A DNA stretch of 64,000 bases. Source: an uncultured Chloroflexia bacterium (GTDB taxonomy: Bacteria > Chloroflexota > Limnocylindria > Limnocylindrales > CSP1-4). The position numbers and the translations under genes are program-made. Under the pieces are notes generated by a model. The model was not told where the DNA came from, did no database searches, and was given only the letters and a program-made list of their open reading frames with translations. Shown here one piece after another: positions 5,674 to 64,000 of the stretch. Each line of letters opens with the position of its first letter. Position 1 is the first letter of the stretch. The stretch is taken from positions 67,733-131,732 of the forward strand of contig CAVQLA010000008.1 of NCBI GenBank assembly GCA_963713285.1, in the 5' to 3' direction.

Positions 5674-6870
<1,197 letters not shown>

Positions 6871-6877
6871 GGACGAG

Positions 6878-7045
6878 ATGGCCAAAGCCGCCGAGAACCG
6901 CCCGATCGTCCAGCTCGCCTGCACCGAGTGCAAGACGCGGACGTACACGACCCGCAAGAACAAGCGGAATGATCCGAACCGGATCGAGCTCCGGAAGTAT
7001 TGTCCGCGTGAACGTCGCCATACCCTGCATCGTGAGGCGAAGTAG
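6878..7045 (+). CDS. rpmG: 50S ribosomal protein L33 (55 aa)
   Basis: Not in the ORF track because it is under 60 aa. [33 protein letters not shown]...[14 protein letters not shown] matches L33. RBS GGGACGAG upstream. Confidence 0.85.
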
Positions 7046-52367: not shown

Positions 52368-53347
52368 ACGGCCTCGCGCTCGTGCCCACGCGCCGGCTGC
52401 TCGTGGAGCGGCCGCGCGTGGTCGTCCCCCTGCTGCCCGGCGACCGGGTCGTCGTCACCATCGGAGCGTCGGTCGTCCCCGGCGACCTGCTGGCGGAGCG
52501 CGTTCGCGATCCGCGCCTCGTCGAGACCGGCGACGGCGACAGTGGTTCCGGGACCACGCATCCGGGCTCCTGGGTCGCCGCGGAAGCCGGCCGGCGCGGC
52601 ACCGCGCCGGCCGGCGAGCTTCTCTTCGAGCACGGGGGGCGGCGTCGCATCGCGACGGGCCCGCATCCCGATCTCGTCGCAGCCCCGGGCGCGGGCAGGG
52701 TGACGGCGATCCACCCGGGTGTCGAGATCGTGCTCGAGCTCGAGGGTGTCGGCATCCCCGGGTGCGAGCTGCTCGGCGATCCTGGGCACGGCCGCCTGGC
52801 GTTGCTGCCGGGCGACGGGGACGGGCGCGTCCCGCTCGACGTGGCTCATGCCGGCGCGATCGTCGTCTTCCCGGGGCGCGCGGACGCCGAGACGCTCACC
52901 CGCGCCCGGGCCATGGGCATCGCCGGGGCGGTGGTGCCGGCGCTCGCCGAGCGCGATCGGCGCGACGTCGTGGCCTCCGAGGCGCGCCAGCGGGCCGGCC
53001 TCCATCGCCTCGCCCCCTTCCCGGTGCTCGTCGTCGACGGCTACCTGCGTCGCCCCCTGGCGAGCCCCGTGCGCGAGATCCTCGCCGGCCTCGCGGGGGT
53101 CGAGGTCGGGCTCGTGGGTGGGCCGCCCCTGCTGATCGCGCCCGTGGCCGAGGGCGAGGTCGCCCGACCGGACGTGGAGCTCGTGCGGGTGCGGGGCGGC
53201 TCCGAGGTGGGTCGCGAGGGCCGGTTCCTGGGCCTCGCCGGCCCCCGGCGCCTGCCGGGTGGCGTGGTCGCCGAGGCGGGCCGCGTGCACCTCGACGACG
53301 GCCGCGACGTCGTCATCGCGCTCGGTGACCTCGAGCGCTTCGTCTAA
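52364..53347 (+). CDS. hypothetical 327-aa protein (no recognisable domain)
   Basis: GTGA overlap with the previous gene. Gly/Val/Pro-rich. Followed by a hairpin, then tsaE. Confidence 0.4.
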   Translation: MNGLALVPTRRLLVERPRVVVPLLPGDRVVVTIGASVVPGDLLAERVRDPRLVETGDGDSGSGTTHPGSWVAAEAGRRGTAPAGELLFEHGGRRRIATGPHPDLVAAPGAGRVTAIHPGVEIVLELEGVGIPGCELLGDPGHGRLALLPGDGDGRVPLDVAHAGAIVVFPGRADAETLTRARAMGIAGAVVPALAERDRRDVVASEARQRAGLHRLAPFPVLVVDGYLRRPLASPVREILAGLAGVEVGLVGGPPLLIAPVAEGEVARPDVELVRVRGGSEVGREGRFLGLAGPRRLPGGVVAEAGRVHLDDGRDVVIALGDLERFV

Positions 53348-53429
53348 GGGGGCCCGCCCCGCGGCGGCGGATCGCGGGCCGGTTCGTGTGCGGGTCCTCG
53401 GACCCCGGCGCTTCTTGTAGGCTCTTGCG

Positions 53430-53900
53430 GTGACACCGCCCTCCGCCGCCGTCCGGCGGACCAGCCCCTCGGCCGCCGCGACGCGCGCCCTCGGCGTGCG
53501 CCTCGGCGCAGCCGCCGCCGCCGGCGACGTGATCGCCCTGGTGGGTCCGCTCGGCGCCGGCAAGACCGAGCTGGCGCGCGGGATCGCGCGGGGCCTCGAC
53601 GTCGAGGAGCCGATCACGTCCCCGACCTTCATCCTGGTCGCCGAGCACCCCGGGCGCGCGACGCTCTTCCACGTCGACTGCTACCGCCTCGCCGGTGCGG
53701 CCGACGCCCTGGCCGCGGGGATCCTCGACGAGCGCGCGGCGGAGGGCGTCACCGTCGTCGAGTGGGCCGACCGGATCGGCGCGGCCCTGCCGCCGGGACG
53801 CCTGGAGATCGTGATCGACGGCGCCGGCGATGAGCCCCGCACGCTCGACCTGCGGGCGACGGACGCCCGCCACGCGCGCCTGCTGGAGGCCGTGGCGTGA
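53430..53900 (+). CDS. tsaE: tRNA threonylcarbamoyladenosine biosynthesis protein TsaE
   Basis: Walker A GPLGAGKT. TsaE/YjeE family. Confidence 0.85.
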   Translation: MTPPSAAVRRTSPSAAATRALGVRLGAAAAAGDVIALVGPLGAGKTELARGIARGLDVEEPITSPTFILVAEHPGRATLFHVDCYRLAGAADALAAGILDERAAEGVTVVEWADRIGAALPPGRLEIVIDGAGDEPRTLDLRATDARHARLLEAVA

Positions 53901-54628
53901 CGGGCCGGCCGGTCGCCGGGACCGCAGCGCCCTTCCTCGCGATCGACACCGCGACGTCGACGGCGGTGCTGGCGCTGGGCGCCCGCGACGGGACGCTCCT
54001 CGCCGCGGATGCGTGGGAGGCCGGGCATCGCCACGCGGAGGAGTTGCTCTCCCGGATCGCGGCCCTGCTGAGCGCGGCCGGGATCGGGCGTCCCGGACCG
54101 GGGGCGCTGGCGGGCGTGGTCGTCGGGACCGGGCCGGGCGGCTTCACCGGCCTCCGGGTGGGGCTTGCGACGGCCCGCGGGATCGCCCGGGCGAGCGGCG
54201 CGCCGCTGATCGGCGTGCCGACAGGGGTTGCGCTCGCCGCCGCCGCGCGGACGGGGGGAGTCGTGGCGCCGGACGCCGCCGTTGCGGTCCTCCTGCCGGC
54301 CGGCCCGGCCGGGCGCTACCTCGTGCGCGAGGGGCACGCGGAGCTCGCGCCCGCGGCGGACGGCTCGGCCGGCGAGGACGCCCCCGGCGACTGGTCCCGG
54401 GACGCCGTCCTCGTGGCGGTGGACCTCGCCGGGCGGGCGCCCGCCGACGCCGTGGCCCGCGGCGCGGCCGCGCAGGCAGGCCTTGCGGGGGTGCTCGTCG
54501 CCCTGGGTGCGGCGCGGCTCCGCGCAGGTGAGGACGACGGGGAGACGCTGGCCCCGGAGTACGTGACGCTGCCGCGCGGGGTGGCCGCGGCCGCGGGGGA
54601 GGTGGCATGGTCGCCCGCCCACCCCTGA
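53897..54628 (+). CDS. tsaB: tRNA threonylcarbamoyladenosine biosynthesis protein TsaB
   Basis: LAIDTATSTAVLAL... YeaZ-like inactive Kae1 homologue. Confidence 0.8.
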   Translation: MTGRPVAGTAAPFLAIDTATSTAVLALGARDGTLLAADAWEAGHRHAEELLSRIAALLSAAGIGRPGPGALAGVVVGTGPGGFTGLRVGLATARGIARASGAPLIGVPTGVALAAAARTGGVVAPDAAVAVLLPAGPAGRYLVREGHAELAPAADGSAGEDAPGDWSRDAVLVAVDLAGRAPADAVARGAAAQAGLAGVLVALGAARLRAGEDDGETLAPEYVTLPRGVAAAAGEVAWSPAHP

Positions 54629-55149
54629 GGTTCGTCATCGAACGGATGACGCACGCCGACCTTGCCGCCGTTCAGGCGATCGAGAAGGCGAGCTTCACCA
54701 CGCCTTGGCCGTCGTACGCCTACCGCAACGAGCTCGAGACGAACCGCCTCGCCCACTACCTCGTCGTCCGCGCCGGGCGCGAGGTGATCGCGTACGCCGG
54801 CGTGTGGCTGATGGTCGACGAGGCGCACGTGACCACGTTCGCCGTAGCGCCCGCGTGGCGCCGCCGGCGCATCGGCGAGCGCCTCATCCTCGCCCTCCTC
54901 GACCTGGCCATCGCGCGCGGGGCCCGCGAAGCGACCCTCGAGGTGCGGCTCTCGAACCTGGGGGCGCGCCGGCTCTACGAGAGGTACGGGTTCCGCCCGG
55001 TCGGCATCCGCCCGCGCTACTACAGCGACGACCACGAGGACGCCCTGATCATGACGACGGAGCCGCTGGAGGCGCCGGCGATGGTGGCTCGCCTCGCGAG
55101 GCGGCGTGCCGAGCTTGACGCCCTGCCGGACCCCGAGGCGCCGGCATGA
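54607..55149 (+). CDS. rimI: ribosomal-protein-alanine N-acetyltransferase
   Basis: GNAT fold (…[16 protein letters not shown]…). Conserved tsaB-rimI-tsaD order. Confidence 0.8.
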   Translation: MVARPPLRFVIERMTHADLAAVQAIEKASFTTPWPSYAYRNELETNRLAHYLVVRAGREVIAYAGVWLMVDEAHVTTFAVAPAWRRRRIGERLILALLDLAIARGAREATLEVRLSNLGARRLYERYGFRPVGIRPRYYSDDHEDALIMTTEPLEAPAMVARLARRRAELDALPDPEAPA

Positions 55150-56345
55150 GCCGCGGCGGCGTCGGCGGCGGCAGCAGCAGCGGCCTCCTCCTGGCCGTCG
55201 AGTCCTCGTGCGACGAGACCGGCGTCGCCCTCCTCGACGGTCCCCGCCGGATCGTCGCCCAGGCCGTCGCGAGCCAGGTCGCGCTCCATGCCGGGACCGG
55301 GGGCATCGTGCCGGAGCTCGCCGCGCGGGCGCACCTGCGCTGGATCGATCCGGCTCTCGACGAGGTCCTCGAGGCGGCCGGCGCGACGCTCGCCGACGTG
55401 CGGGCCGTCGCCGTCACGGCCGGCCCGGGGCTCGTCGGCTCGCTGCTCGTCGGCCTCGCGTACGCCAAGGCGGTCGCCTGGTCGCTCGAGGTCCCGCTCG
55501 TCGGGGTCAACCACCTCGAGGGGCACCTGTACGCGGCCTGGCTCCTCGACCCGGGCGAGGCGGAGCGGCCCGAGCCGGCGTTCCCGCTCGTCGCGCTCGT
55601 CGTGTCGGGGGGCCACACGTTCCTCGTCGAGATGCGGGACCACCTTGCCTACCGGCTCCTGGGCGAGACGGTCGACGACGCGGCCGGCGAGGCGTTCGAC
55701 AAGGCCGGGCGCCTCCTCGGCCTGGGCTACCCCGGCGGGCCGGCGATCGCCGCGGCCGCCGCCGACGCGGCCGGGCCGGTCGAGCGCCTGCCGCGGGCCT
55801 GGCTCGGCGACTCGTTCGACTTCAGCTTCTCGGGGCTCAAGACCGCCCTCCGCCGGCTCGTCGAGGCGGAGCTGCACGCGGCCGGCCTGCCGTCGGCGGA
55901 GGACGGCGGGCACCTCCCGGCCGGGCGCGTTGCCGCGCTCGCGGCGGCCTTCCAGGACAGCGTCGTCGACGTCCTGGCCGCCAAGACGCTGCGGGCGACG
56001 GAGGCCACCGGCGCCCGAACGGTCGTGGTCGGCGGCGGAGTGGCATCGAACGAAGCCCTGCGCGCCCGGCTGGCGGCGGGTGCCGCCGCCCTCGGCGTCG
56101 ACCTCGTCATCCCGCGTCCGGGGCTCTGCACGGACAACGGGGCGATGATCGGCGCTGCCGGCGCCCGCCGCCTCGCCGCCGGCGAGCGCGCCGGCCTCGA
56201 CCTCGGCGTCCGCGCGTCGTGGCCGCTCGCCCGCCCGGCCGGCGCCCCGACCTCGCGCCGTCCGCCGACGCGCGGCGCGGCGGCCCGCGCGTATGCCGCG
56301 GCGCGGGACGCGGAGGCGGATGCCGCGGGGCGGGTCACCCGGTGA
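55146..56345 (+). CDS. tsaD: tRNA N6-adenosine threonylcarbamoyltransferase
   Basis: Kae1/TsaD motifs (LAVESSCDETGVAL, GVNHLEGH, VSGGHTFL). Confidence 0.9.
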   Translation: MSRGGVGGGSSSGLLLAVESSCDETGVALLDGPRRIVAQAVASQVALHAGTGGIVPELAARAHLRWIDPALDEVLEAAGATLADVRAVAVTAGPGLVGSLLVGLAYAKAVAWSLEVPLVGVNHLEGHLYAAWLLDPGEAERPEPAFPLVALVVSGGHTFLVEMRDHLAYRLLGETVDDAAGEAFDKAGRLLGLGYPGGPAIAAAAADAAGPVERLPRAWLGDSFDFSFSGLKTALRRLVEAELHAAGLPSAEDGGHLPAGRVAALAAAFQDSVVDVLAAKTLRATEATGARTVVVGGGVASNEALRARLAAGAAALGVDLVIPRPGLCTDNGAMIGAAGARRLAAGERAGLDLGVRASWPLARPAGAPTSRRPPTRGAAARAYAAARDAEADAAGRVTR

Positions 56346-57256
56346 GCGGCACGCGCGCGCCGATCCGCCTCGATCCCGGCGCCGTGCGGCGGACGCTCCG
56401 CGAGGCCGGCCTCCGGGCGCAGCGGCGCTTCTCCCAGAACTTCCTCGTCGACGTGGAGGTCCTCGAGGACATCCTGGCGGCCGCTGCGCCGGCCCCGGAC
56501 CGGCGGGTCCTCGAGATCGGGCCGGGACTGGGGATCCTGACCGGTGGGCTGCTCGGGGCCGGTGCCCGGGTCACCGCCGTAGAGATCGACCGCGGGATGG
56601 TCGCCCACCTGCGCGAGGCCTTCGCCCTCGAGCTCGCGGCCGGCACGCTGATCCTCGTGGAGGGGGACGTGCTCGACGAGGATCTCGCCGCCCTGGTCGC
56701 CGCCCCCTACGACGTCGTGGCGAACCTGCCCTACCACGTGACGAGCCCCGTGCTGCACCGGCTCCTCGGCGGTGAGGCGGGGCCGCGCCCCGAGCGCTGT
56801 GTCCTCATGGTCCAGCGCGAGGTGGCCGAGCGGATCGCGGCACCCCCCGGCGGGATGAGCTATCTCTCGGTGTTCGTCCAGTACCACGCCGCCGCGTCGA
56901 TCGTCCGTCGCGTCCCGCGCGCGGCGTTCGAGCCGGCCCCGGCGGTCGAATCGGCGATCCTCGCGCTCGACGTGCGCGCCCCCGACGCGCTCGGCCGCCT
57001 GCCCGTCGCGATGGAGGACAGCCTCTGGCGGCTCGTGCAGGCCGGCTTCCGCGAGCGGCGCAAGATGCTCCACAACGTGCTGCCGCGCCAGCTGCCGATC
57101 GAGCCGGCCACGGTCGCGGCCGCGCTCGAGGCGGCCGGGATCGACGGCGATCGCCGGCCCCAGACGCTGGGAGTGGGGGAGTGGATCGCCCTGCTGGGCG
57201 CGCTCGGGCCGATCCCGGAGGATCGCCGCGGCCGGCGGTCGGACGCGCCGGGATGA
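56342..57256 (+). CDS. rsmA: 16S rRNA (adenine1518-N6/adenine1519-N6)-dimethyltransferase
   Basis: GQNFLVD, VLEIGPGLGILT, NLPYHVTSP motifs. The track ORF 55106..57256 is an upstream read-through. Confidence 0.9.
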   Translation: MSGTRAPIRLDPGAVRRTLREAGLRAQRRFSQNFLVDVEVLEDILAAAAPAPDRRVLEIGPGLGILTGGLLGAGARVTAVEIDRGMVAHLREAFALELAAGTLILVEGDVLDEDLAALVAAPYDVVANLPYHVTSPVLHRLLGGEAGPRPERCVLMVQREVAERIAAPPGGMSYLSVFVQYHAAASIVRRVPRAAFEPAPAVESAILALDVRAPDALGRLPVAMEDSLWRLVQAGFRERRKMLHNVLPRQLPIEPATVAAALEAAGIDGDRRPQTLGVGEWIALLGALGPIPEDRRGRRSDAPG

Positions 57257-58299
57257 GCGATCCCGTCGGCCGCGTGACGCCGGTCGTGCGCGTGGCCCCC
57301 GCCAAGCTCAACCTGACCCTGGCCATCGTGGGCCGGCGCGCCGACGGCTTCCACGCCCTCCACTCGGTGATGGCGCCGCTCGACCTGGCCGACTGGCTGG
57401 CGCTCAGCCCCGCCCACGGCCCGCGAGACCGGCTGCACGTCGTCGGCCCGGACGGGGCGCCGGAGCCGGAGCTCGGCCCGGCCGAGGACAACCTGGTCCT
57501 GCGGGCGATCCGTGCGGTCCGGGCGGCCGTCCGGTCCGCCGGCGACGACCGGCCCCTGCCCCCCCTGGCGGCTCGCCTCGAGAAGCGGATCCCCGCCGCC
57601 GCCGGCCTCGGCGGCGGCTCGTCGGACGCGGCGGCCGCGCTGGACGGGGCGCTCGAGGCCTGGGGGGCCGGCGACGCGCTCGCCCCGGACACCCGGGCGG
57701 CCCTCGCCGCCTCGCTCGGCTCCGACTGTCCCTTCTTCCTCGCTGGCGGCTGGGCGCTCGTCGAGGGGCGCGGAGAGCAGGTCTCGCCGCTGCCTGCCCC
57801 GCGGGGAGAGGCGCCTGGAGTCCTGCTCGTGACCCCGGCCATCGGCGTGTCGACGCCGGCGGTCTTCGCCCGGTATGCCGCGGGCATCCGTCCCGTGGGG
57901 GCGGCCACGCTGGCGTCGTCGCGCTACCTCGCCGGGGAGCTGCAGGCCGGCCTGACGACGACGCGCCTGATCGAGCGCGCCGGCGTCCTGTCGGTGGCCA
58001 ACGACCTGGTGCCGGCGACGAGCGACCTGGTCCCGGCGCTCACCTCCGCCCGACGAGCGCTGGCCCGGCTGCTGGAACGCCCGGTCGGCCAGTCCGGGTC
58101 GGGCCCGACGCTCTGGGCGCTCTCGCCGTCGAAGGCCGATGCGGTCGGGGACGCGGCCATCGTCCGCGCCGCGCTGGCCGACGGCCTGCTCTCGTTCCCG
58201 GGCGACCGGCCCCCGTTCGTCGCCGCCGCTGCGGTCGTCGGCACCCAGGCGACGAGCGTCGCCACCGTCCATCCACACGCCACCCCGTCGTCCCGATAG
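57253..58299 (+). CDS. ispE: 4-diphosphocytidyl-2-C-methyl-D-erythritol kinase
   Basis: GHMP kinase. APAKLNLTLAIVGRRADGFH and PAAAGLGGGSSDAAA motifs. ATGA overlap with rsmA. Confidence 0.85.
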   Translation: MSDPVGRVTPVVRVAPAKLNLTLAIVGRRADGFHALHSVMAPLDLADWLALSPAHGPRDRLHVVGPDGAPEPELGPAEDNLVLRAIRAVRAAVRSAGDDRPLPPLAARLEKRIPAAAGLGGGSSDAAAALDGALEAWGAGDALAPDTRAALAASLGSDCPFFLAGGWALVEGRGEQVSPLPAPRGEAPGVLLVTPAIGVSTPAVFARYAAGIRPVGAATLASSRYLAGELQAGLTTTRLIERAGVLSVANDLVPATSDLVPALTSARRALARLLERPVGQSGSGPTLWALSPSKADAVGDAAIVRAALADGLLSFPGDRPPFVAAAAVVGTQATSVATVHPHATPSSR

Positions 58300-58317
58300 C
58301 GTCCAAGGAGGATCGCC

Positions 58318-58704
58318 ATGCCCCGCACGCCCGTCGCCACCTCGCTCGCCCCGGCCGCCCTCGGCCCGTACAGCCAGGCCATCGCCGCCGGCGGCTTCCT
58401 GTTCTGCTCCGGCCAGCTCGGCCTCGACCCGGCGACCGGCGAGTTCGCCGGCCCCGACGTCGAGACCCAGGCCGAGCGCGCCCTGGCGAACCTCCGGAAC
58501 GTCCTCGACGCGGCCGGCTGTACCTTCGAGGATGTCGTGAAGACGACGATCTTCCTCGCCGACATGGCCGACTTCGCGGCCGTCAATTCGGTCTACGGAC
58601 GGTTCGTGAGCGACCCGCCGCCGGCCCGCTCCACGGTCCAGGTCGCGGCGCTCCCGAAGGGCGGCCGGGTCGAGATCGAGGCCACCGCCCGCCTGCGCGG
58701 CTGA
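58318..58704 (+). CDS. ridA: RidA/YjgF-family reactive enamine/imine deaminase
   Basis: 128 aa. ALGPYSQA..., TTIFLADMADFAAVN, RSTVQV...LPKGGRVEIEA. Confidence 0.85.
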   Translation: MPRTPVATSLAPAALGPYSQAIAAGGFLFCSGQLGLDPATGEFAGPDVETQAERALANLRNVLDAAGCTFEDVVKTTIFLADMADFAAVNSVYGRFVSDPPPARSTVQVAALPKGGRVEIEATARLRG

Positions 58705-58775
58705 GGCCGCACCTTCAGTCCGATCGATACTTCGTGGAGCTCCGACTACTGCAGCTTCGACCTGTGGAGCGATCC
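58705..58775 (+). pseudogene. relic of the 3' end of a gene paralogous to 59707-60141, left upstream of the first lipoprotein copy
   Basis: ttcgtggagctccgactactgcagcttcgacctgtggagcgatccatga aligns with the last 48 nt of the 59707-60141 gene (…ADYRSFDLWSDP*). The upstream reading frame is destroyed. Confidence 0.4.
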
Positions 58776-59342
58776 ATGAGCACTGCTCGAACCCTTCGTC
58801 TGGCTGCAGGTCTGGCACTCCTCGCTGCGTTGGTGGTCGGCTGCGTCGCGCCCGGTGCGAGCCCGACGCCGGTGCCCTCGCCCGCAGGCTCGGCCACGGC
58901 CGCGCCGTCGCTGGCGACGACCCCGGCCGCCAGCCCCACGCCCGATCTGCGGCCCGTCCCCCTCCCGCCCGGTGGCATCTACTCCGGAGAGGTCGTGGAC
59001 CCGGCCCTCGCCACCCTGCCGCTCGAGGAGGCGCTTGCGATCGGCCGGGCCGTCCCGCCGCTTGCTCCGGAGAACAACTGGATCGGGACGAACCCCGTCG
59101 CCCGCCTGATGACCCTCACCAACAGCCACCCGGAGGACGGCTTCGGGCCGCTCGTCGCCTGGGTGATCGTGACGGACGACGCCGCGCCCTTCGGCGGGAC
59201 CGGCCTTCCCACGACGAGCTCGCCGCCGCCGTACAACGGCACGCTCTCCTGGACCATCGTCGGGATGGACGGCAACGTCCTGGACCACGTTCAGGTCGGA
59301 TACTTCGCGCCGAACAGCCCCCCGCCGTTGCCGCGCGACTGA
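58776..59342 (+). CDS. predicted lipoprotein (copy 1), Pro/Ala/Ser/Thr linker plus globular domain
   Basis: Signal peptide with lipobox L-V-V-G-C. Paralogue at 60138..60704. Confidence 0.6.
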   Translation: MSTARTLRLAAGLALLAALVVGCVAPGASPTPVPSPAGSATAAPSLATTPAASPTPDLRPVPLPPGGIYSGEVVDPALATLPLEEALAIGRAVPPLAPENNWIGTNPVARLMTLTNSHPEDGFGPLVAWVIVTDDAAPFGGTGLPTTSSPPPYNGTLSWTIVGMDGNVLDHVQVGYFAPNSPPPLPRD

Positions 59343-59406
59343 CCCGCCGCGGGCCGGCCGATCGGCCCTTGACCGGGGGTATCGTCGGCGCGACGATGTC
59401 GACCCG

Positions 59407-59691
59407 ATGGTGCTCCGATCGGCGCTCCTCGCCCTCGCCGCCGTCCTGGCCCTGCTGGTCAGCCCCCGGGCAGCGCGGGCGGACGACTGCCTCGACGAGG
59501 CGACCCACCTCTTCGTCGGTGGTCACGAGGGTGCTCTCATCTCGACGAGCACGGGCGTGGCGGCCGATGCGGTGCCCAGGAACCCGACGCTCTGCACGCG
59601 CCAGGCCGGGCAGCCGCTCAGCGCCTACGAGAGCGCGTCAGCGGCCTGGGCGATGATCTACAGCACGGCCGATCCCTTCTACTACCACTAG
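59407..59691 (+). CDS. small secreted protein (94 aa, 2 Cys), hypothetical
   Basis: Signal peptide MVLRSALLALAAVLALLVSPRAARA with an AxA cleavage site. No known domain. Confidence 0.5.
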   Translation: MVLRSALLALAAVLALLVSPRAARADDCLDEATHLFVGGHEGALISTSTGVAADAVPRNPTLCTRQAGQPLSAYESASAAWAMIYSTADPFYYH

Positions 59692-59706
59692 GTCGGGTGG
59701 GCGAGA

Positions 59707-60141
59707 GTGCGTGGCGAGACCGCGGCGGTCTGGTTCTCGGAGTGGAACGACGGCTCCACTCCGACGACACGCAAGTCAACGTACTCTCCAACGTGGGGCA
59801 CCCGGTATCGCCTGGTGGTGCGATACACCACGCTCTGGAACAGGTACGTCCTGCTCGACTCGGACGGGTCCATGGTCTGGAACGCCCCCGACGACCCAAC
59901 CAGCCACTCGTGGTATCCGACCGACGCCACGTACGCAGCCGAGACCTGGAACCACGGGGACCGGACCCCCGGCACCTCCTCGCTCAAGGCGCGCCTTGAC
60001 ACCCTCCGCTGGTACGACGAGAACGGCGACATCGTCTACGCCTACATCCCGTCTGTTGACCGCTTCAACGACTACTCGTCGACCTACCACGCCTCGTGGG
60101 GTGCCGACTACCGCAGCTTCGACCTGTGGAGCGATCCATGA
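59707..60141 (+). CDS. hypothetical 144-aa Trp/Tyr/Asn/Thr-rich protein, lower GC than surroundings
   Basis: GTG start after GGGTGGGCGAGAG. ATGA overlap with lipoprotein copy 2. Rich in W/Y/N/T/S/D. No signal peptide. Confidence 0.5.
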   Translation: MRGETAAVWFSEWNDGSTPTTRKSTYSPTWGTRYRLVVRYTTLWNRYVLLDSDGSMVWNAPDDPTSHSWYPTDATYAAETWNHGDRTPGTSSLKARLDTLRWYDENGDIVYAYIPSVDRFNDYSSTYHASWGADYRSFDLWSDP

Positions 60142-60704
60142 TCACCTCCAGCACCCTCCGGCTCGCCACCGGCCTGGCGCTCCTCAGCGCCCTCCTCGCC
60201 GGGTGCGTGGCGCCGGCTGCGAGCCCGACGCCGGTGCCCTCGCCCGCAGGCTCGGCCACGGCCGCGCCGTCGCTGGCGACGACCCCGGCCGCCAGCCCCA
60301 CGCCCGATCTGCGGCCCGTCCCCCTCCCGCCCGGTGGCATCTACTCCGGAGAGGTCGTGGACCCGGCCCTCGCCACCCTGCCGCTCGAGGAGGCGCTTGC
60401 GATCGGCCGGGCCGTCCCGCCGCTTGCCCCGGAGAACAACTGGGTCGGAACGAACCCGGTCGCGCGCCTGATGACCCTCACCAACAGCCACCCGGAGGAC
60501 GGCTTCGGGCCGCTGCTTGCGTGGGTGATCGTGACGGACGACGCGCCGCCCTTCCGTGGCACCGGGCTCCCGACGACGAGCTCGCCCCCGCCGTACCTCG
60601 GCACGCTCTCCTGGACGATCGTCGGCATGGACGGCACCCTCCTCGACCAGGTCCAGGGGCGCTACTTCGTGCCGAACAGCCCGCCGCCGCTGCCGCGGGA
60701 CTGA
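60138..60704 (+). CDS. predicted lipoprotein (copy 2)
   Basis: Signal peptide with lipobox L-L-A-G-C. The 5' half is about 270 nt identical to copy 1 and the 3' half is diverged. Confidence 0.6.
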   Translation: MITSSTLRLATGLALLSALLAGCVAPAASPTPVPSPAGSATAAPSLATTPAASPTPDLRPVPLPPGGIYSGEVVDPALATLPLEEALAIGRAVPPLAPENNWVGTNPVARLMTLTNSHPEDGFGPLLAWVIVTDDAPPFRGTGLPTTSSPPPYLGTLSWTIVGMDGTLLDQVQGRYFVPNSPPPLPRD

Positions 60705-60712
60705 CTGCGCCC

Positions 60713-60765
60713 GGGCGTCTCGCGACGCCCGTCGGTGTCGGAGGGCCGCGACGCCGACCGTCGCG
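60713..60765 (+). terminator. two tandem GC-rich hairpins (GGGCGTC-tcgc-GACGCCC and CGCGACG-ccgac-CGTCGCG) after the lipoprotein cassette
   Basis: Perfect inverted repeats read directly. No U-tract, as is common in high-GC genomes. Confidence 0.45.
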
Positions 60766-61263
60766 CGGCAAGGGACGTTGTGGCCGGGGTACGGGTGCGC
60801 CCCTGCTCACGGCCGCGCCAGGGCCAACGGCAACCCGGGGAGTGGGGCGGCGTGACGGGCGCCGACGGCGGCCATACCGGGTCTCGCGCCAGTGAGGCTG
60901 GCGGGGACGGCGGCGTCCGTGCTCACGTCGCCCCCGGAAGTCGCGGTTCGACCGGCGACGTGAGCGTGCAGACCACCGATCCTGCCAGTGCGGCTGGCAT
61001 CGACCCGCGCACGGAGCCTGAGGTGCCCGTGGCCCTGGCAGTCCGGGCGCAATGCCAGCCCGGCTGGCGCGATGCCGAGTTCCGCGTCCCTCGGCGTCGA
61101 TGTGTCCCTGCGGCCCCCACGAGCGCCCGTCGGTTGACGAACCGGCAGGCGCGCCCCTACGATCCCGGCACCACATGACAGCCGAACCAGCAACGCCGGA
61201 CGACCGTCGCCCGGACCCCGAGCCCATCGCGCTCGCGGGTCGCCCCGTCCGCACCGCCCCGCG

Positions 61264-62703
61264 ATGACCCATCCCGTTGCCGTCGTGCTCGCCGGGGGGC
61301 TCGGCACGCGCATGAAATCCGGCACTCCCAAGCTCCTGCACCCCCTGTGCGGGCGCCCGATGCTGGCGTTCGTCCTGGACGCGGCCCGCGCGGCGACCGG
61401 TGCCGATCCCGTCGTGGTCGTCTCGCCGGCCACCGCCGCGGTGCGCGACGCGTTCCCCGCCGGCGTCATGTTCGCGCTCCAGGAGCGGCCGGACGGCACC
61501 GGCGACGCCCTCCGGGCCGGGCTGGCGGCCGTCCCGGTCGACGCCGACGAGATCGCCGTGATCAACGGCGACGTCCCCCTCCTCGAGGCCGACCTGGTCG
61601 CCGGCGTGCTCGCCCGCCGCCGCGAGGCCGGCGCGGCACTGGCCCTGGTCTCGTTCGAGACGTGGGAGCCGGGCCGGCTGGGCCGCGTGATCCGGACCGA
61701 CGACGGGGAGACGGTCGCGCGGATCGTGGAGGCCAGAGACGCGACCCCCGACGAGCTGGCCGTCGGCGAGGTCAACGCCGGGCTCTACGCCTTCGACGCT
61801 GCCTGGCTGCGCGGCGCGATCGGGCGCCTGACACCATCGCCGGCCACGGGGGAGCTCTATCTGACCCAGCTCGTCGACCTGGCCCGCGCCGACGGGCGCC
61901 CGGTGGTGGCCCTCGAGGCCGACGACGACGGGACGCTCGACGGGATCAACGACCGGGTCCAGCTGGCCGAGGCGACGGCGATGCTCCGCGAGCGGATCAA
62001 CGTCGCCTGGATGCGGGCCGGGGTCACGATGCTCGACCCGGCCACGGCCTACGTCGATGCCGACGTGGAGCTGGCCCCGGACGTCACCCTGGAGCCGAAC
62101 GTCATCCTGCGCGGCGGCACGCGAATCGGGGAGGGGACCGTCATCGGCGCCGGGAGCCAGGTCATCGACAGCGAGGTCGGCCCACGCTGCCGCGTGTGGG
62201 CCAGCGTCCTCGAGCGCTCCACGGTGGAGGAGGGGACCACCATCGGGCCCTTCAGCCACCTGCGCCCCGGCAGCTCGATCGGGCCGGGCGTCGAGATCGG
62301 CAACTACGCCGAGGTCAAGAACAGCCGCCTCGACGCGGGCGTGAAGCAGCACCACGTGAGCTACCTCGGCGACGCCCACCTGGGCGAGGGGACGAACGTG
62401 GGCGCCGGCACGATCACCGCCAACTACGACGGCGTCCGCAAGCACCGCACCGAGATCGGCAAGGGGGTCTTCCTGGGCGTCGACACGATGCTGCGCGCCC
62501 CGGTGACGCTCGGCGACGGGTCGAAGACCGGGGCGGGAGCCGTGGTCACGAGGGACGTCCCGCCCGGCAAGCTGGCGGTCGGGGTTCCCGCCCGGATCCG
62601 CGACCCGCGACCCGCCGCTGCGCCGGCGGACGGAGGCGCGGTCACAGCAGACCCGGTCGAACCGGCGGCGGACCCGTCACCTCCTCGGGAGGGAGCCTCC
62701 TGA
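61264..62703 (+). CDS. glmU: bifunctional UDP-N-acetylglucosamine pyrophosphorylase / glucosamine-1-phosphate N-acetyltransferase
   Basis: N-terminal LAGGLGTRMKS. C-terminal left-handed beta-helix hexapeptide repeats. Confidence 0.9.
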   Translation: MTHPVAVVLAGGLGTRMKSGTPKLLHPLCGRPMLAFVLDAARAATGADPVVVVSPATAAVRDAFPAGVMFALQERPDGTGDALRAGLAAVPVDADEIAVINGDVPLLEADLVAGVLARRREAGAALALVSFETWEPGRLGRVIRTDDGETVARIVEARDATPDELAVGEVNAGLYAFDAAWLRGAIGRLTPSPATGELYLTQLVDLARADGRPVVALEADDDGTLDGINDRVQLAEATAMLRERINVAWMRAGVTMLDPATAYVDADVELAPDVTLEPNVILRGGTRIGEGTVIGAGSQVIDSEVGPRCRVWASVLERSTVEEGTTIGPFSHLRPGSSIGPGVEIGNYAEVKNSRLDAGVKQHHVSYLGDAHLGEGTNVGAGTITANYDGVRKHRTEIGKGVFLGVDTMLRAPVTLGDGSKTGAGAVVTRDVPPGKLAVGVPARIRDPRPAAAPADGGAVTADPVEPAADPSPPREGAS

Positions 62704-64000
62704 TGGGTTCTCTCACCGAGATCCTCATCGTCATCGGCCTGACGCTGCTGGCCGGCATCTTCGTGGCGGCCGAGATCGCCCTGGTCTCGATCCGGAGGAG
62801 CCGCGTCGAGCAGCTGGTGGACGAGCGGCATCGCGGCGCCGCCCGGGTGCGCCATCTTGTCGAGGATCCCGCCCGGTTCCTGGCCGTCATCCAGATCGCC
62901 ATCACGTTCATCGGCTTCCTCTCGTCGGCCGTGGCCGCCGTGGCCCTCACGACCGGCCTCGCCGAGCTGATCGGGAACATCGAGTGGCTGAAGGGCAGCG
63001 CGGAGGCCATCGCGCTGGTGATCGTCACGGTCCTCGTCTCACTCTTCTCGATCGTCGTCGGCGAGCTGGTCCCGAAGGCGCTCGCCCTCGCGTTTCCCGA
63101 CCGCACCGCCCTCCTGCTCGCCGGTCCCGTGGACATCCTCGGCCGGCTCCTCGCGCCGGTCGTCGCCGTCCTCACCGGCCTGACTCGCCTGATCGTCCGG
63201 CCCTTCGGGGCCGACGTGACGAAGGAGGCCCAGATCACCGCCGAGGAGCTCAAGCTCATCGTCGAGCGCGGGGGCGACGAGGGTGTCCTCGAAGCGGAGG
63301 AGGAGCAGATGATCCACGCGGTCATCGAGCTCGGGGAGCGCCGCGTGCACGAGGTGATGGTCCCCCGCATCGACATCGTGGGGATCGAGGCGGACTCCGA
63401 CCTCGAGACCGCCGTCGACCGGATCATCGCCGGGGGCCACAGCCGGCTCCCGGCCTGGGAGGGGTCCGTCGACGAGGTGGTGGGGATCCTGTACGCGAAG
63501 GACCTCCTGCCGATCCTGAAGGCCGACTCCGGCGAGCGACCCACCGTCCGGGCCCTCCTCCGGCCCCCCGTCTTCGTCCCGGAGTCGATGTCGATCGACG
63601 ACCTCCTCCACGAGTTCCAGCGGCGCAAGGTTCATCTCGCGATCGTGGGCGACGAGTACGGCGGCACCGCCGGCCTCGTCACGATCGAGGATCTTCTCGA
63701 GGAGATCGTCGGCGAGATCCAGGACGAGTACGACGCGGAAGAGGAGATGGTCGTCCGTCTCGACGACGGCCGGGTCCGCTTCGACGGGCGGGCGTCGGTC
63801 GACGAGCTCGAGGAGGCCTGGGACGACCTGGACCTCGACGAGCTCCTCGAGGACCGCGACGAGTACGACACGATCGGCGGCCTGGTCTTCCACCGGATCG
63901 GCGGCGTGCCGAAGCCGGGCGACGTGGTCGAGCTCGAGAGCCTCACGATCACGGTCGAGTCGACGGACGGGCGCCGGGTGTCGAAGGTGCTCGTGACCCG
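62703..64000 (+). CDS. CNNM/CorC-HlyC family membrane protein (DUF21 + CBS pair + CorC_HlyC), 3' truncated by window end
   Basis: Not in the ORF track because there is no stop before the window end. N-terminal TM helices, CBS pair (HEVMVPRIDIVGIEAD..., HLAIVGDEYGGTAGLVTIEDLLEEIVGEI), C-terminal transporter-associated domain. ATG overlaps the glmU stop (TGATG). Confidence 0.75.
   Translation, partial: MGSLTEILIVIGLTLLAGIFVAAEIALVSIRRSRVEQLVDERHRGAARVRHLVEDPARFLAVIQIAITFIGFLSSAVAAVALTTGLAELIGNIEWLKGSAEAIALVIVTVLVSLFSIVVGELVPKALALAFPDRTALLLAGPVDILGRLLAPVVAVLTGLTRLIVRPFGADVTKEAQITAEELKLIVERGGDEGVLEAEEEQMIHAVIELGERRVHEVMVPRIDIVGIEADSDLETAVDRIIAGGHSRLPAWEGSVDEVVGILYAKDLLPILKADSGERPTVRALLRPPVFVPESMSIDDLLHEFQRRKVHLAIVGDEYGGTAGLVTIEDLLEEIVGEIQDEYDAEEEMVVRLDDGRVRFDGRASVDELEEAWDDLDLDELLEDRDEYDTIGGLVFHRIGGVPKPGDVVELESLTITVESTDGRRVSKVLVT

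Follow-up and report, generated by a model that had tools for sequence, protein, structure and literature searches.

Eqolisins (MEROPS family G1, PF01828), among them scytalidoglutamic peptidase (SGP; 1S2B, 2IFW), aspergilloglutamic peptidase and the bacterial pepG1, are secreted beta-sandwich enzymes of about 200-220 residues. Their catalytic dyad consists of a Gln and a Glu (Q53 and E136 in SGP), and an acidic pH optimum and insensitivity to pepstatin are their defining biochemistry (PMC3009609). Q53, G55, W67 and E69 are reported to be catalytic or highly conserved (PMC6154417). Neprosin, a prolyl endopeptidase of family G3 (7ZVB, 7ZU8), works with a pair of Glu residues (E188/E297) and has its all-beta prodomain in cis (PMC9343461). 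Here we describe a locus in a stretch of 64,000 nucleotides from an uncultured Chloroflexia bacterium (contig CAVQLA010000008.1 of assembly GCA_963713285.1, positions 67,733 to 131,732), called the window below. In this locus, a short relic of a Trp- and Tyr-rich gene (WY) precedes copy 1 of a duplicated lipoprotein gene, and the full-length WY gene between the two copies encodes a protein with a predicted fold of the glutamic-peptidase type. The order of the locus is ridA, stub-lipoprotein 1-WY-lipoprotein 2, glmU.

Two further kinds of described arrangement resemble the locus. As in the protease-inhibitor and foldase operons staphopain-staphostatin, serralysin-Inh and lipase LipA-Lif, of which Lif is membrane-anchored, the gene for a secreted (putative) hydrolase is followed by a translationally coupled gene for a small partner. 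The likeness is one of gene arrangement, and the WY partner has no sequence relation or demonstrated structural relation to staphostatin, Inh or Lif. Ordinary remnants of tandem duplication show the same direct repeats of about 0.6 kb around a unique gene, a conversion tract, chimeric collapse and a stub at the repeat end. The only special point of the present locus in comparison with them is that the stub carries the ribosome-binding site of the downstream gene.

The explanation that we consider reasonably likely as a whole is that the stub belongs to a duplicated module of WY and its partner, in which WY would have a glutamic-peptidase fold and the partner would be tethered to the membrane, and that this module is decaying in the clade. 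The two-gene module would have been duplicated with a period of 1362 nt between ridA and glmU. WY would be a Sec-secreted beta-sandwich protein of about 219 residues with the eqolisin G1/neprosin G3 fold, an invariant Gln/Glu pair and no prodomain of its own. The lipoprotein, represented by a transmembrane-anchored homologue in other lineages, would be its cognate membrane-tethered partner, most likely an inhibitor or a "prodomain in trans" with a role in the control or folding of the peptidase on the cell surface. Decay would be represented here by an amber stop at the codon of the WY Gln that is predicted to be catalytic, and in two related lineages by deletion of WY through recombination between the lipoprotein repeats, followed by damage to the lone lipoprotein gene. 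If the partner does bind WY as inhibitor or prodomain, it would be useless once WY is lost.

A pseudogene stub of WY before lipoprotein copy 1

The 48 nt at 58732-58779 (TCGTGGAGCTCCGACTACTGCAGCTTCGACCTGTGGAGCGATCCATGA) match the 3'-terminal 48 nt of WY (60094-60141, TCGTGGGGTGCCGACTACCGCAGCTTCGACCTGTGGAGCGATCCATGA) at 44 of 48 positions in an ungapped alignment. When the WY 3' end was compared with all 48-mers on both strands of the 64-kb window, the runner-up had 27 of 48 identities, and the mean was 13.3 (standard deviation 3.0). A sequence-only reading had put the match at 43 of 48 or better by eye, and the alignment agrees, the ATGA stop/start overlap included. The reservation attached to that estimate, that two unrelated 48-mers might match as well, is answered by the distance to the runner-up. 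Also as proposed there, the similarity is lost upstream, namely at 58732, and the repeated unit includes WY sequence, with the repeat beginning inside the 3' end of WY and not at the lipoprotein start. The extent given for the relic, 58705-58778, needs to be narrowed, as the remaining 27 nt after the ridA stop are unrelated to WY.

The match shares its offset of 1362 nt with the direct repeat of the lipoprotein genes (58732-59346 against 60094-60708), in which 546 of 615 nt are identical (88.8%). It is also detectable at the protein level, where tblastn aligned WY residues 225-244 with window positions 58717-58776 (E = 0.005). In the 27 nt from the ridA stop to 58731, no similarity to WY rose above shuffle level, and an extension of the relic to the left of 58732 was ruled out by shuffle tests. 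The frame of the relic reads back into the ridA stop nine codons upstream, and the start and body of WY are gone. As expected of a pseudogene, the relic significantly resembles one part of a paralogue that is intact, does so in line with the duplicated segment next to it, and has no complete reading frame. We regard 58732-58779 as confirmed to be a genuine pseudogene stub of the WY gene, joined to lipoprotein copy 1. All four nucleotide differences from intact WY are non-synonymous (G to S, A to S, R to C), and one of the substitutions falls on an Arg that is invariant across three WY orthologues. The differences fit a loss of coding constraint.

The stub contains the GGAG Shine-Dalgarno sequence of lipoprotein copy 1. 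Its counterpart in copy 2 (60128-60131) lies within the WY coding sequence (codons L-W-S), 6 nt before the ATG at 60138. The core TGGAGCGATCC-[A/G]TG is retained in the related loci L001 and L004, and the L003 version is mutated to TGAAGCGATCG. The stub persists, at least in part, because the ribosome-binding site (GGAG) and the overlapping start of the lipoprotein gene lie within the last WY codons. Open reading frames (ORFs) listed from GTG codons at 58734 and 60096 are artefacts of the listing rule; the true starts are the ATG codons at 58776 and 60138, each with a GGAG 6 nt upstream.

History of the repeat and of the stub

Related loci fall into two types. L001, a contig of the European Nucleotide Archive with flanks about 84% identical to those of the window, has the order ridA, lipoprotein, intact WY, lipoprotein, glmU. 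L003 (GCA_025490975.1) and L004/L005 have a single lipoprotein gene and no WY between ridA and glmU, and flanks about 94% identical to the window. By flank identity L001 is the outgroup (84%), with the window, L003 and L004 at 92-94% among themselves. Lateral transfer of the cassette was ruled out by the similar synonymous divergence (dS) of the individual genes (ridA 0.24, lipoprotein copy 1 0.29, copy 2 0.25, WY 0.32).

In their 3' parts, copy 1 of the window is 93.5% identical to copy 1 of L001, copy 2 is 92.4% identical to copy 2 of L001, and the two window copies are 87.7% identical to each other. Each window copy is thus orthologous to its own counterpart in L001, and the duplication therefore predates the split of the two lineages. 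An identical run of 210 nt, the longest in genes that are otherwise about 88% identical, departs from this pattern. Within it, both window copies are nearer to copy 1 of L001 (94%) than to copy 2 (89%), which by these similarities indicates that copy 2 was recently converted by copy 1, leaving copy-1-type sequence in both. The signal-peptide region of copy 1 (58776-58844) has 52-65% identity to all other copies; L001 and L003 agree there at 66 of 69 positions. By eye, the same region is rich in A/T-ending codons for a genome of 72% GC.

The single genes of L003 and L004/L005 are chimeric, with a 5' end of the copy-1 type and a 3' end and downstream sequence of the copy-2 type. Such chimeras are, from their mosaic sequence, the expected product of recombination between the direct repeats with deletion of WY, and the different switch points of L003 and L004 make it appear that WY was deleted independently in two lineages. 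Both single genes are damaged. In L003 the Shine-Dalgarno sequence GGAG has become GAAG, the family-invariant Trp129 is replaced by Arg (W129R), and another Trp by Ser. In L004 and the independently assembled L005, the GTG start has become GAG, and there is no alternative in-frame start. The four related strains illustrate a deletion-prone gene between direct repeats and decay of a partner gene after loss of its companion.

A shorter form of the stub is found in L001, L003 and L004. In these loci GGCGCCGCATCTTCAGCTGGAGCGATCC comes right after the ridA stop and is followed by the start codon, and the intergenic segment is shorter by 45 nt than its window counterpart. The short relic of L001 also aligns to the WY 3' end (CCGCAGCTTCGACCTGTGGAGCGATCCATG), with a score of 27 against 12.2 +/- 2.2 in shuffles (0 of 2000 reached it). 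The short relic being WY-like, the 3' fragment of WY was already joined to copy 1 in the common ancestor. The 48-nt form was found in the window alone, and the segment 58719-58837 of the window, which comprises the filler, the 48-nt relic and the signal peptide of copy 1, has no counterpart in L001, L003 or L004. No intact second WY gene stands at the stub position, where L001 has the shorter stub and L003 and L004 have a stub only.

The sequence-only reading had held that copy 1 once had its own WY partner, and had suggested looking for intact copies in related strains. A true remnant of the WY 3' end is present, but no relative has two complete WY genes, and no intact copy was found in front of copy 1. 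A whole WY gene formerly present before copy 1 would be the simplest route to the stub, as one tandem duplication by itself cannot leave a partial copy on the upstream side of the intact one. It is doubtful, though worth weighing, that copy 1 never had one, and that a partial copy consisting of the WY 3' end and the lipoprotein gene was inserted upstream, or that the stub is a later patch or conversion from the WY-lipoprotein junction. The absence of any relative with the order WY-lipoprotein-WY-lipoprotein agrees with this alternative, as do the lack of a counterpart of 58719-58837 and the fact that L001, L003 and L004 share the form that is 45 nt shorter together with a different signal peptide; with L001 as the outgroup, the short form is ancestral by parsimony. 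On the other side, tandem duplication followed by deletion needs only common mechanisms. Conversion of the long into the short form is a simple deletion between CCGCAcCTTC (58706-58715) and CTGCAgCTTC (58749-58758), whereas the reverse change requires a non-homologous left junction. The long form may accordingly be ancestral, with the short form derived by deletion between these imperfect repeats; or it may be a later patch, as parsimony on the flank tree favours. On either history, the WY 3' fragment adjoined copy 1 in the common ancestor. A different proposal, that the match is a conserved element in the 5' region of the lipoprotein genes, regulatory or for ribosome binding, that overlaps the WY end by chance in copy 2 and is no gene remnant at all, draws on the roughly 15 nt at the 3' end (TGGAGCGATCC plus the start), which all strains keep and which contain the GGAG. 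We consider it highly improbable, since the match reaches about 30 nt past the Shine-Dalgarno sequence in the WY codon register and is detectable by tblastn; the same stretch of the more distant locus L002 diverges codon-wise, in a coding pattern; upstream of the distant lipoprotein homologue in L006 there is a gene for a membrane protein and no WY-like ORF; and in three relatives most of the 48 nt is gone yet the gene is kept. As a relic the stub is ordinary, a routine trace of duplication and deletion.

The predicted WY fold, and the tethered partner protein

The start of the W/Y-rich gene had been placed at 59707 in the sequence-only reading, which is not borne out. The ORFs 59407-59691 (94 residues, with signal peptide) and 59707-60141 (144 residues) belong to one frame that is split only by a TAG codon, and the gene starts at 59407. 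Signal peptide cleavage is predicted at about ARA/DD after residue 25, leaving a beta-sandwich domain of about 219 residues. Full-length intact homologues are P0001 (244 residues, 91% identity) and P0002 (248 residues, 58%). The first 453 nt of WY (window 59407-60141 against L001 6465-7199) are 84.5% identical to L001 and the last 282 nt 97.5% (7 differences), and this mosaic suggests a recombination breakpoint near window position 59860.

An exhaustive HMMER search with a WY profile identified 67 representatives at E<1e-3, most of them of 240-270 residues with signal peptides. All sampled members are metagenomic and either unnamed or annotated as hypothetical. Neither WY nor the lipoprotein matched Pfam or NCBIfam, and PDB sequence searches with the profiles of the WY and partner families gave no match. 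A family alignment of 42 sequences (mean identity 25%) revealed that Q95, G97, E179 and G189 are invariant in all 42, and C28 and C63 nearly so. An AlphaFold2 model of P0001 based on this alignment was all-beta, with a mean predicted local distance difference test (pLDDT) score of 93.7 and a predicted template modelling score of 0.87. A model from a two-sequence alignment was unusable (pLDDT 32).

In a Foldseek search of the PDB with this model, ranks 1-8 were all glutamic peptidases. They were the SGP structures 2ifr, 2ifw and 1s2b (E 2.3-2.8e-7, probability 1.0, template modelling (TM) scores 0.54-0.65) and the neprosin structures 7zvb, 9qr8, 7zvc, 7zu8 and 7zva (E 3.0-7.3e-7; for the mature forms TMq 0.60-0.62 and TMt 0.57-0.59). 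SGP was the best structural match (E 2.3e-7, TM 0.56/0.64), and the model has the two-sheet "half-pipe" fold of the eqolisins; neprosin was an equally good match (E 3e-7, TM 0.62/0.59), with the same two-sheet sandwich and cleft. Galectins, LG domains, xyloglucanases and GH16 glucanases formed a lower tier (E about 1e-3 to 1e-2). The model gives solid support for a predicted WY fold of the glutamic-peptidase type.

Like the eqolisins, the WY family has one strict Gln and one Glu, with Q-x-G and aromatic-x-E motifs that are collinear in a weak local alignment. The distance from Gln to Glu is 84 residues in WY, 83 in SGP and 82 in pepG1. The alignment in question, made by hhalign between the WY profile and SGP alone (E 0.056), placed W81/Q95/G97/F110/E112 on W39/Q53/G55/W67/E69; with an alignment of 61 fungal G1 sequences, hhalign followed a different and unreliable path (E 0.051). 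Q95 and E179 would probably be equivalent to the catalytic dyad of the eqolisins, and we infer that WY may be an active Gln/Glu peptidase. Other features differ. The Glu motif is G-E-T...DD.PGT in WY and A-E-W-I-V-E-D in eqolisins. SGP is made as a precursor of 260 residues and is 206 residues long when mature, whereas the WY precursor of 244 residues leaves no space for one, as Cys28 and the first strand at residue 35 directly follow a signal peptide of about 25 residues. Unlike in eqolisins, the fold thus begins a few residues past the signal peptide without an N-terminal propeptide or prodomain, and there is always a gene for a membrane-tethered partner downstream. In contrast to neprosin, with its Glu/Glu dyad and cis prodomain, WY has the invariant Gln in first place and no prodomain, and no Neprosin hit in Pfam. 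Enzymes of G1 and G3 are zymogens that have their prodomain in cis.

In the window, the TAG codon replaces the codon of Q95, the Gln that is invariant in the family; the codon is CAG in L001 and L002, and the change is CCAGG to CTAGG. The ratio of non-synonymous to synonymous divergence (dN/dS) from L001 is 0.18 on either side of the stop, and the stop is therefore recent or an error. Recoding of TAG was ruled out, as TAG serves as an ordinary stop at 58297-58299. There it closes a long ORF (57181-58299) whose syntenic counterpart in L001, L003 and L004 is the GHMP-kinase (IspE-like) gene.

The gene downstream of WY encodes a lipoprotein with a conserved C-terminal domain of about 125 residues, as judged from family alignments; the product of copy 1 is identical to P0003. 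The lipobox pattern [LVI][ASTVI][GAS]C is present in copy 1 (...AALVVGC) and copy 2 (...SALLAGC), and its Cys in 8 of 8 lipoprotein-type homologues. The WY homologues P0011, P0012 and P0014, which share 33-34% identity with P0001, are followed by an overlapping gene whose product can be aligned with the lipoprotein and has a transmembrane anchor in place of the lipobox. Common to the partners are the motifs (I/V)PLP, G.VVDP, VG.(N/D)P(L/V).R(L/V), W(V/I)(I/L)(V/L)(T/S).D and, near the C-terminus, PP.LP. Adjacency and translational coupling are conserved over a range of 33-91% WY identity, with an ATGA overlap in the window and L001, TGATG in L002, and an 11-nt overlap in L008, L009/L010 and L013-L015. 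L002/L007 (CAVRZZ010000010.1, a Chloroflexia metagenome-assembled genome), which has a single pair of WY and lipoprotein genes at an unrelated locus, resembles L008, L009/L010 and L013-L015 in that the partner is homologous and overlaps WY by 4 or 11 nt. The L002 pair sits between a helix-turn-helix gene/rpsO and a glycosyltransferase gene, and at L013 a third gene (1464-2093, 209 residues) with a lipoprotein-like signal (...LLSSC) follows the WY/partner pair.

The description of the two proteins as a functional pair gains support from these loci, as WY homologues of 33-60% identity each have an overlapping gene for a homologous tethered partner. Both proteins are exported, which rules out a cytoplasmic toxin-antitoxin system. 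The earlier comparison to toxin-immunity or chaperone-client arrangements may be taken as a fair analogy for an extracytoplasmic protease with a tethered inhibitor or foldase. The proposed role of the partner is read indirectly from conserved adjacency and from the decay of the partner after the loss of WY. In scans of genome contigs with a two-sequence WY alignment, only the known L002 locus was recovered; metagenome scans revealed no WY locus and, with the lipoprotein as query, only the known L005 locus, and tblastn against plasmids gave no match.

Several results weigh against the overall explanation, and some of them bear on its rivals. PF01828 (Peptidase_A4) had no hit at E <= 1 with the window fragments and all 42 members, and there was no Neprosin hit. 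Sequence homology between WY and the eqolisins is not claimed, as the hhalign values of about 0.05 are not significant and depend on parameters. No locus with the order WY-lipoprotein-WY-lipoprotein was found among relatives or in genome and metagenome scans. The partner matched no known inhibitor or PepSY model. L006, the distant lipoprotein homologue, has no WY gene upstream, and two WY members that are farther removed are followed, at a distance of 5-31 nt, by small secreted proteins of a comparable pattern, with no significant homology to the lipoprotein (E 0.24-0.48). Finally, the amber codon may stem from a sequencing error. The missing Pfam hits, the GH16 glucanases, xyloglucanases and galectins of the lower Foldseek tier, and the putative nature of the catalytic Glu equivalence would all suit a non-catalytic or carbohydrate-active jelly-roll (lectin- or glucanase-like) with a lipoprotein that is only a co-transcribed envelope protein. 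This is an unlikely reading, given that the glutamic peptidases rank four orders of magnitude better, that just two polar positions are invariant, a Gln and a Glu with G1-like spacing, and that the matches to eqolisin Q53, G55, W67 and E69 are collinear. A base-calling or assembly error at the amber codon, for example at a methylated CCWGG site, would leave WY intact and remove the decay from this genome. It has somewhat better prospects than a jelly-roll, though we still think it the less probable case. The lone C to T change, its CCAGG context, which is plausibly also a base-calling trap, and the lack of any other defect in WY with equal constraint in both halves speak for an error. Against it, C to T at CCAGG is equally a classic deamination hotspot of 5-methylcytosine (Dcm-type), and WY was lost independently in two sister lineages, i.e. 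is dispensable there.

The stub is of use as a pointer to a conserved module of two genes, the first of which would have the rare glutamic-peptidase fold and lies outside every curated family. As an unannotated variant of a known enzyme class, the family is modestly novel. It is conceivable, but in our estimate rather improbable, that the WY proteins are new, deeply divergent bacterial glutamic peptidases whose inhibitory or folding prodomain is encoded separately, as a membrane-tethered protein, by the overlapping downstream gene, and that the lipoprotein duplication and the stub are traces of a tuning of partner dosage or immunity. If biochemistry bears out the module, one of the smallest protease classes would gain a new branch in bacteria, and there would be an example of a protease with its controlling domain supplied in trans.

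PepSY (PF03413) had no hit for any partner at E <= 10, and only sub-threshold chance hits to unrelated families were seen. The small secreted proteins at L012 (882-1406) and L016 (829-1284), which match neither the lipoprotein profile nor Pfam significantly, contain a helix and a "..VVIDAxTGxxL" pattern reminiscent of PepSY; this resemblance of the distant downstream proteins is an impression from sequence patterns.

Locus context

The coordinates of the features are collected in Table 1. The cassette interrupts the housekeeping run tsaE-tsaB-rimI-tsaD-rsmA-ispE-ridA / glmU (window about 52800-62700), which we take to resemble the ksgA...ispE-purR-yabJ-spoVG-gcaD-prs region of Bacillus. The synteny at ridA is the same in L001, L003 and L004. 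No Rfam hit was obtained in 56000-64000, no promoter-like site was found inside the cassette, and two terminator-like hits look incidental.

Table 1. Coordinates of features at the ridA-glmU locus of the window and of the chimeric genes in relatives
Feature	Position	Strand	Remarks
ridA (Endoribonuclease L-PSP family)	58318..58704	+	Pfam PF01042, E 6e-44; TGA 58702-58704, 27 nt before the relic
WY 3'-end relic	58732..58779	+	last 15 codons and stop; SWSSDYCSFDLWSDP-stop against SWGADYRSFDLWSDP-stop of the intact gene
GGAG Shine-Dalgarno of lipoprotein copy 1	58766..58769	+	inside the relic, 6 nt before ATG 58776
Lipoprotein copy 1 (A1)	58776..59342	+	188 residues; signal peptide, lipobox LVVGC, Pro/Thr-rich linker, C-terminal domain
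Identical 210-nt run	58856..59065 = 60218..60427	+	longest identical run of the two copies
Full W/Y-rich gene (WY)	59407..60141	+	244 codons; Sec signal peptide and beta-sandwich domain, one in-frame stop
In-frame TAG	59689..59691	+	in place of the codon of Q95, the predicted catalytic Gln
Lipoprotein copy 2 (A2)	60138..60704	+	188 residues; lipobox LLAGC; ATG overlaps the WY stop (ATGA)
Chimeric single lipoprotein gene, L003	5874-6474
Chimeric single lipoprotein gene, L004	2618-3209
Chimeric single lipoprotein gene, L005	128-718

Between lipoprotein copy 2 and glmU lies a non-coding stretch of 560 nt (60705-61263), most of which is absent from L001. In L003, the corresponding spacer contains local tandem duplications (6487-6530 and 6845-6905), and in the window it contains one promoter-like site (61134-61163).

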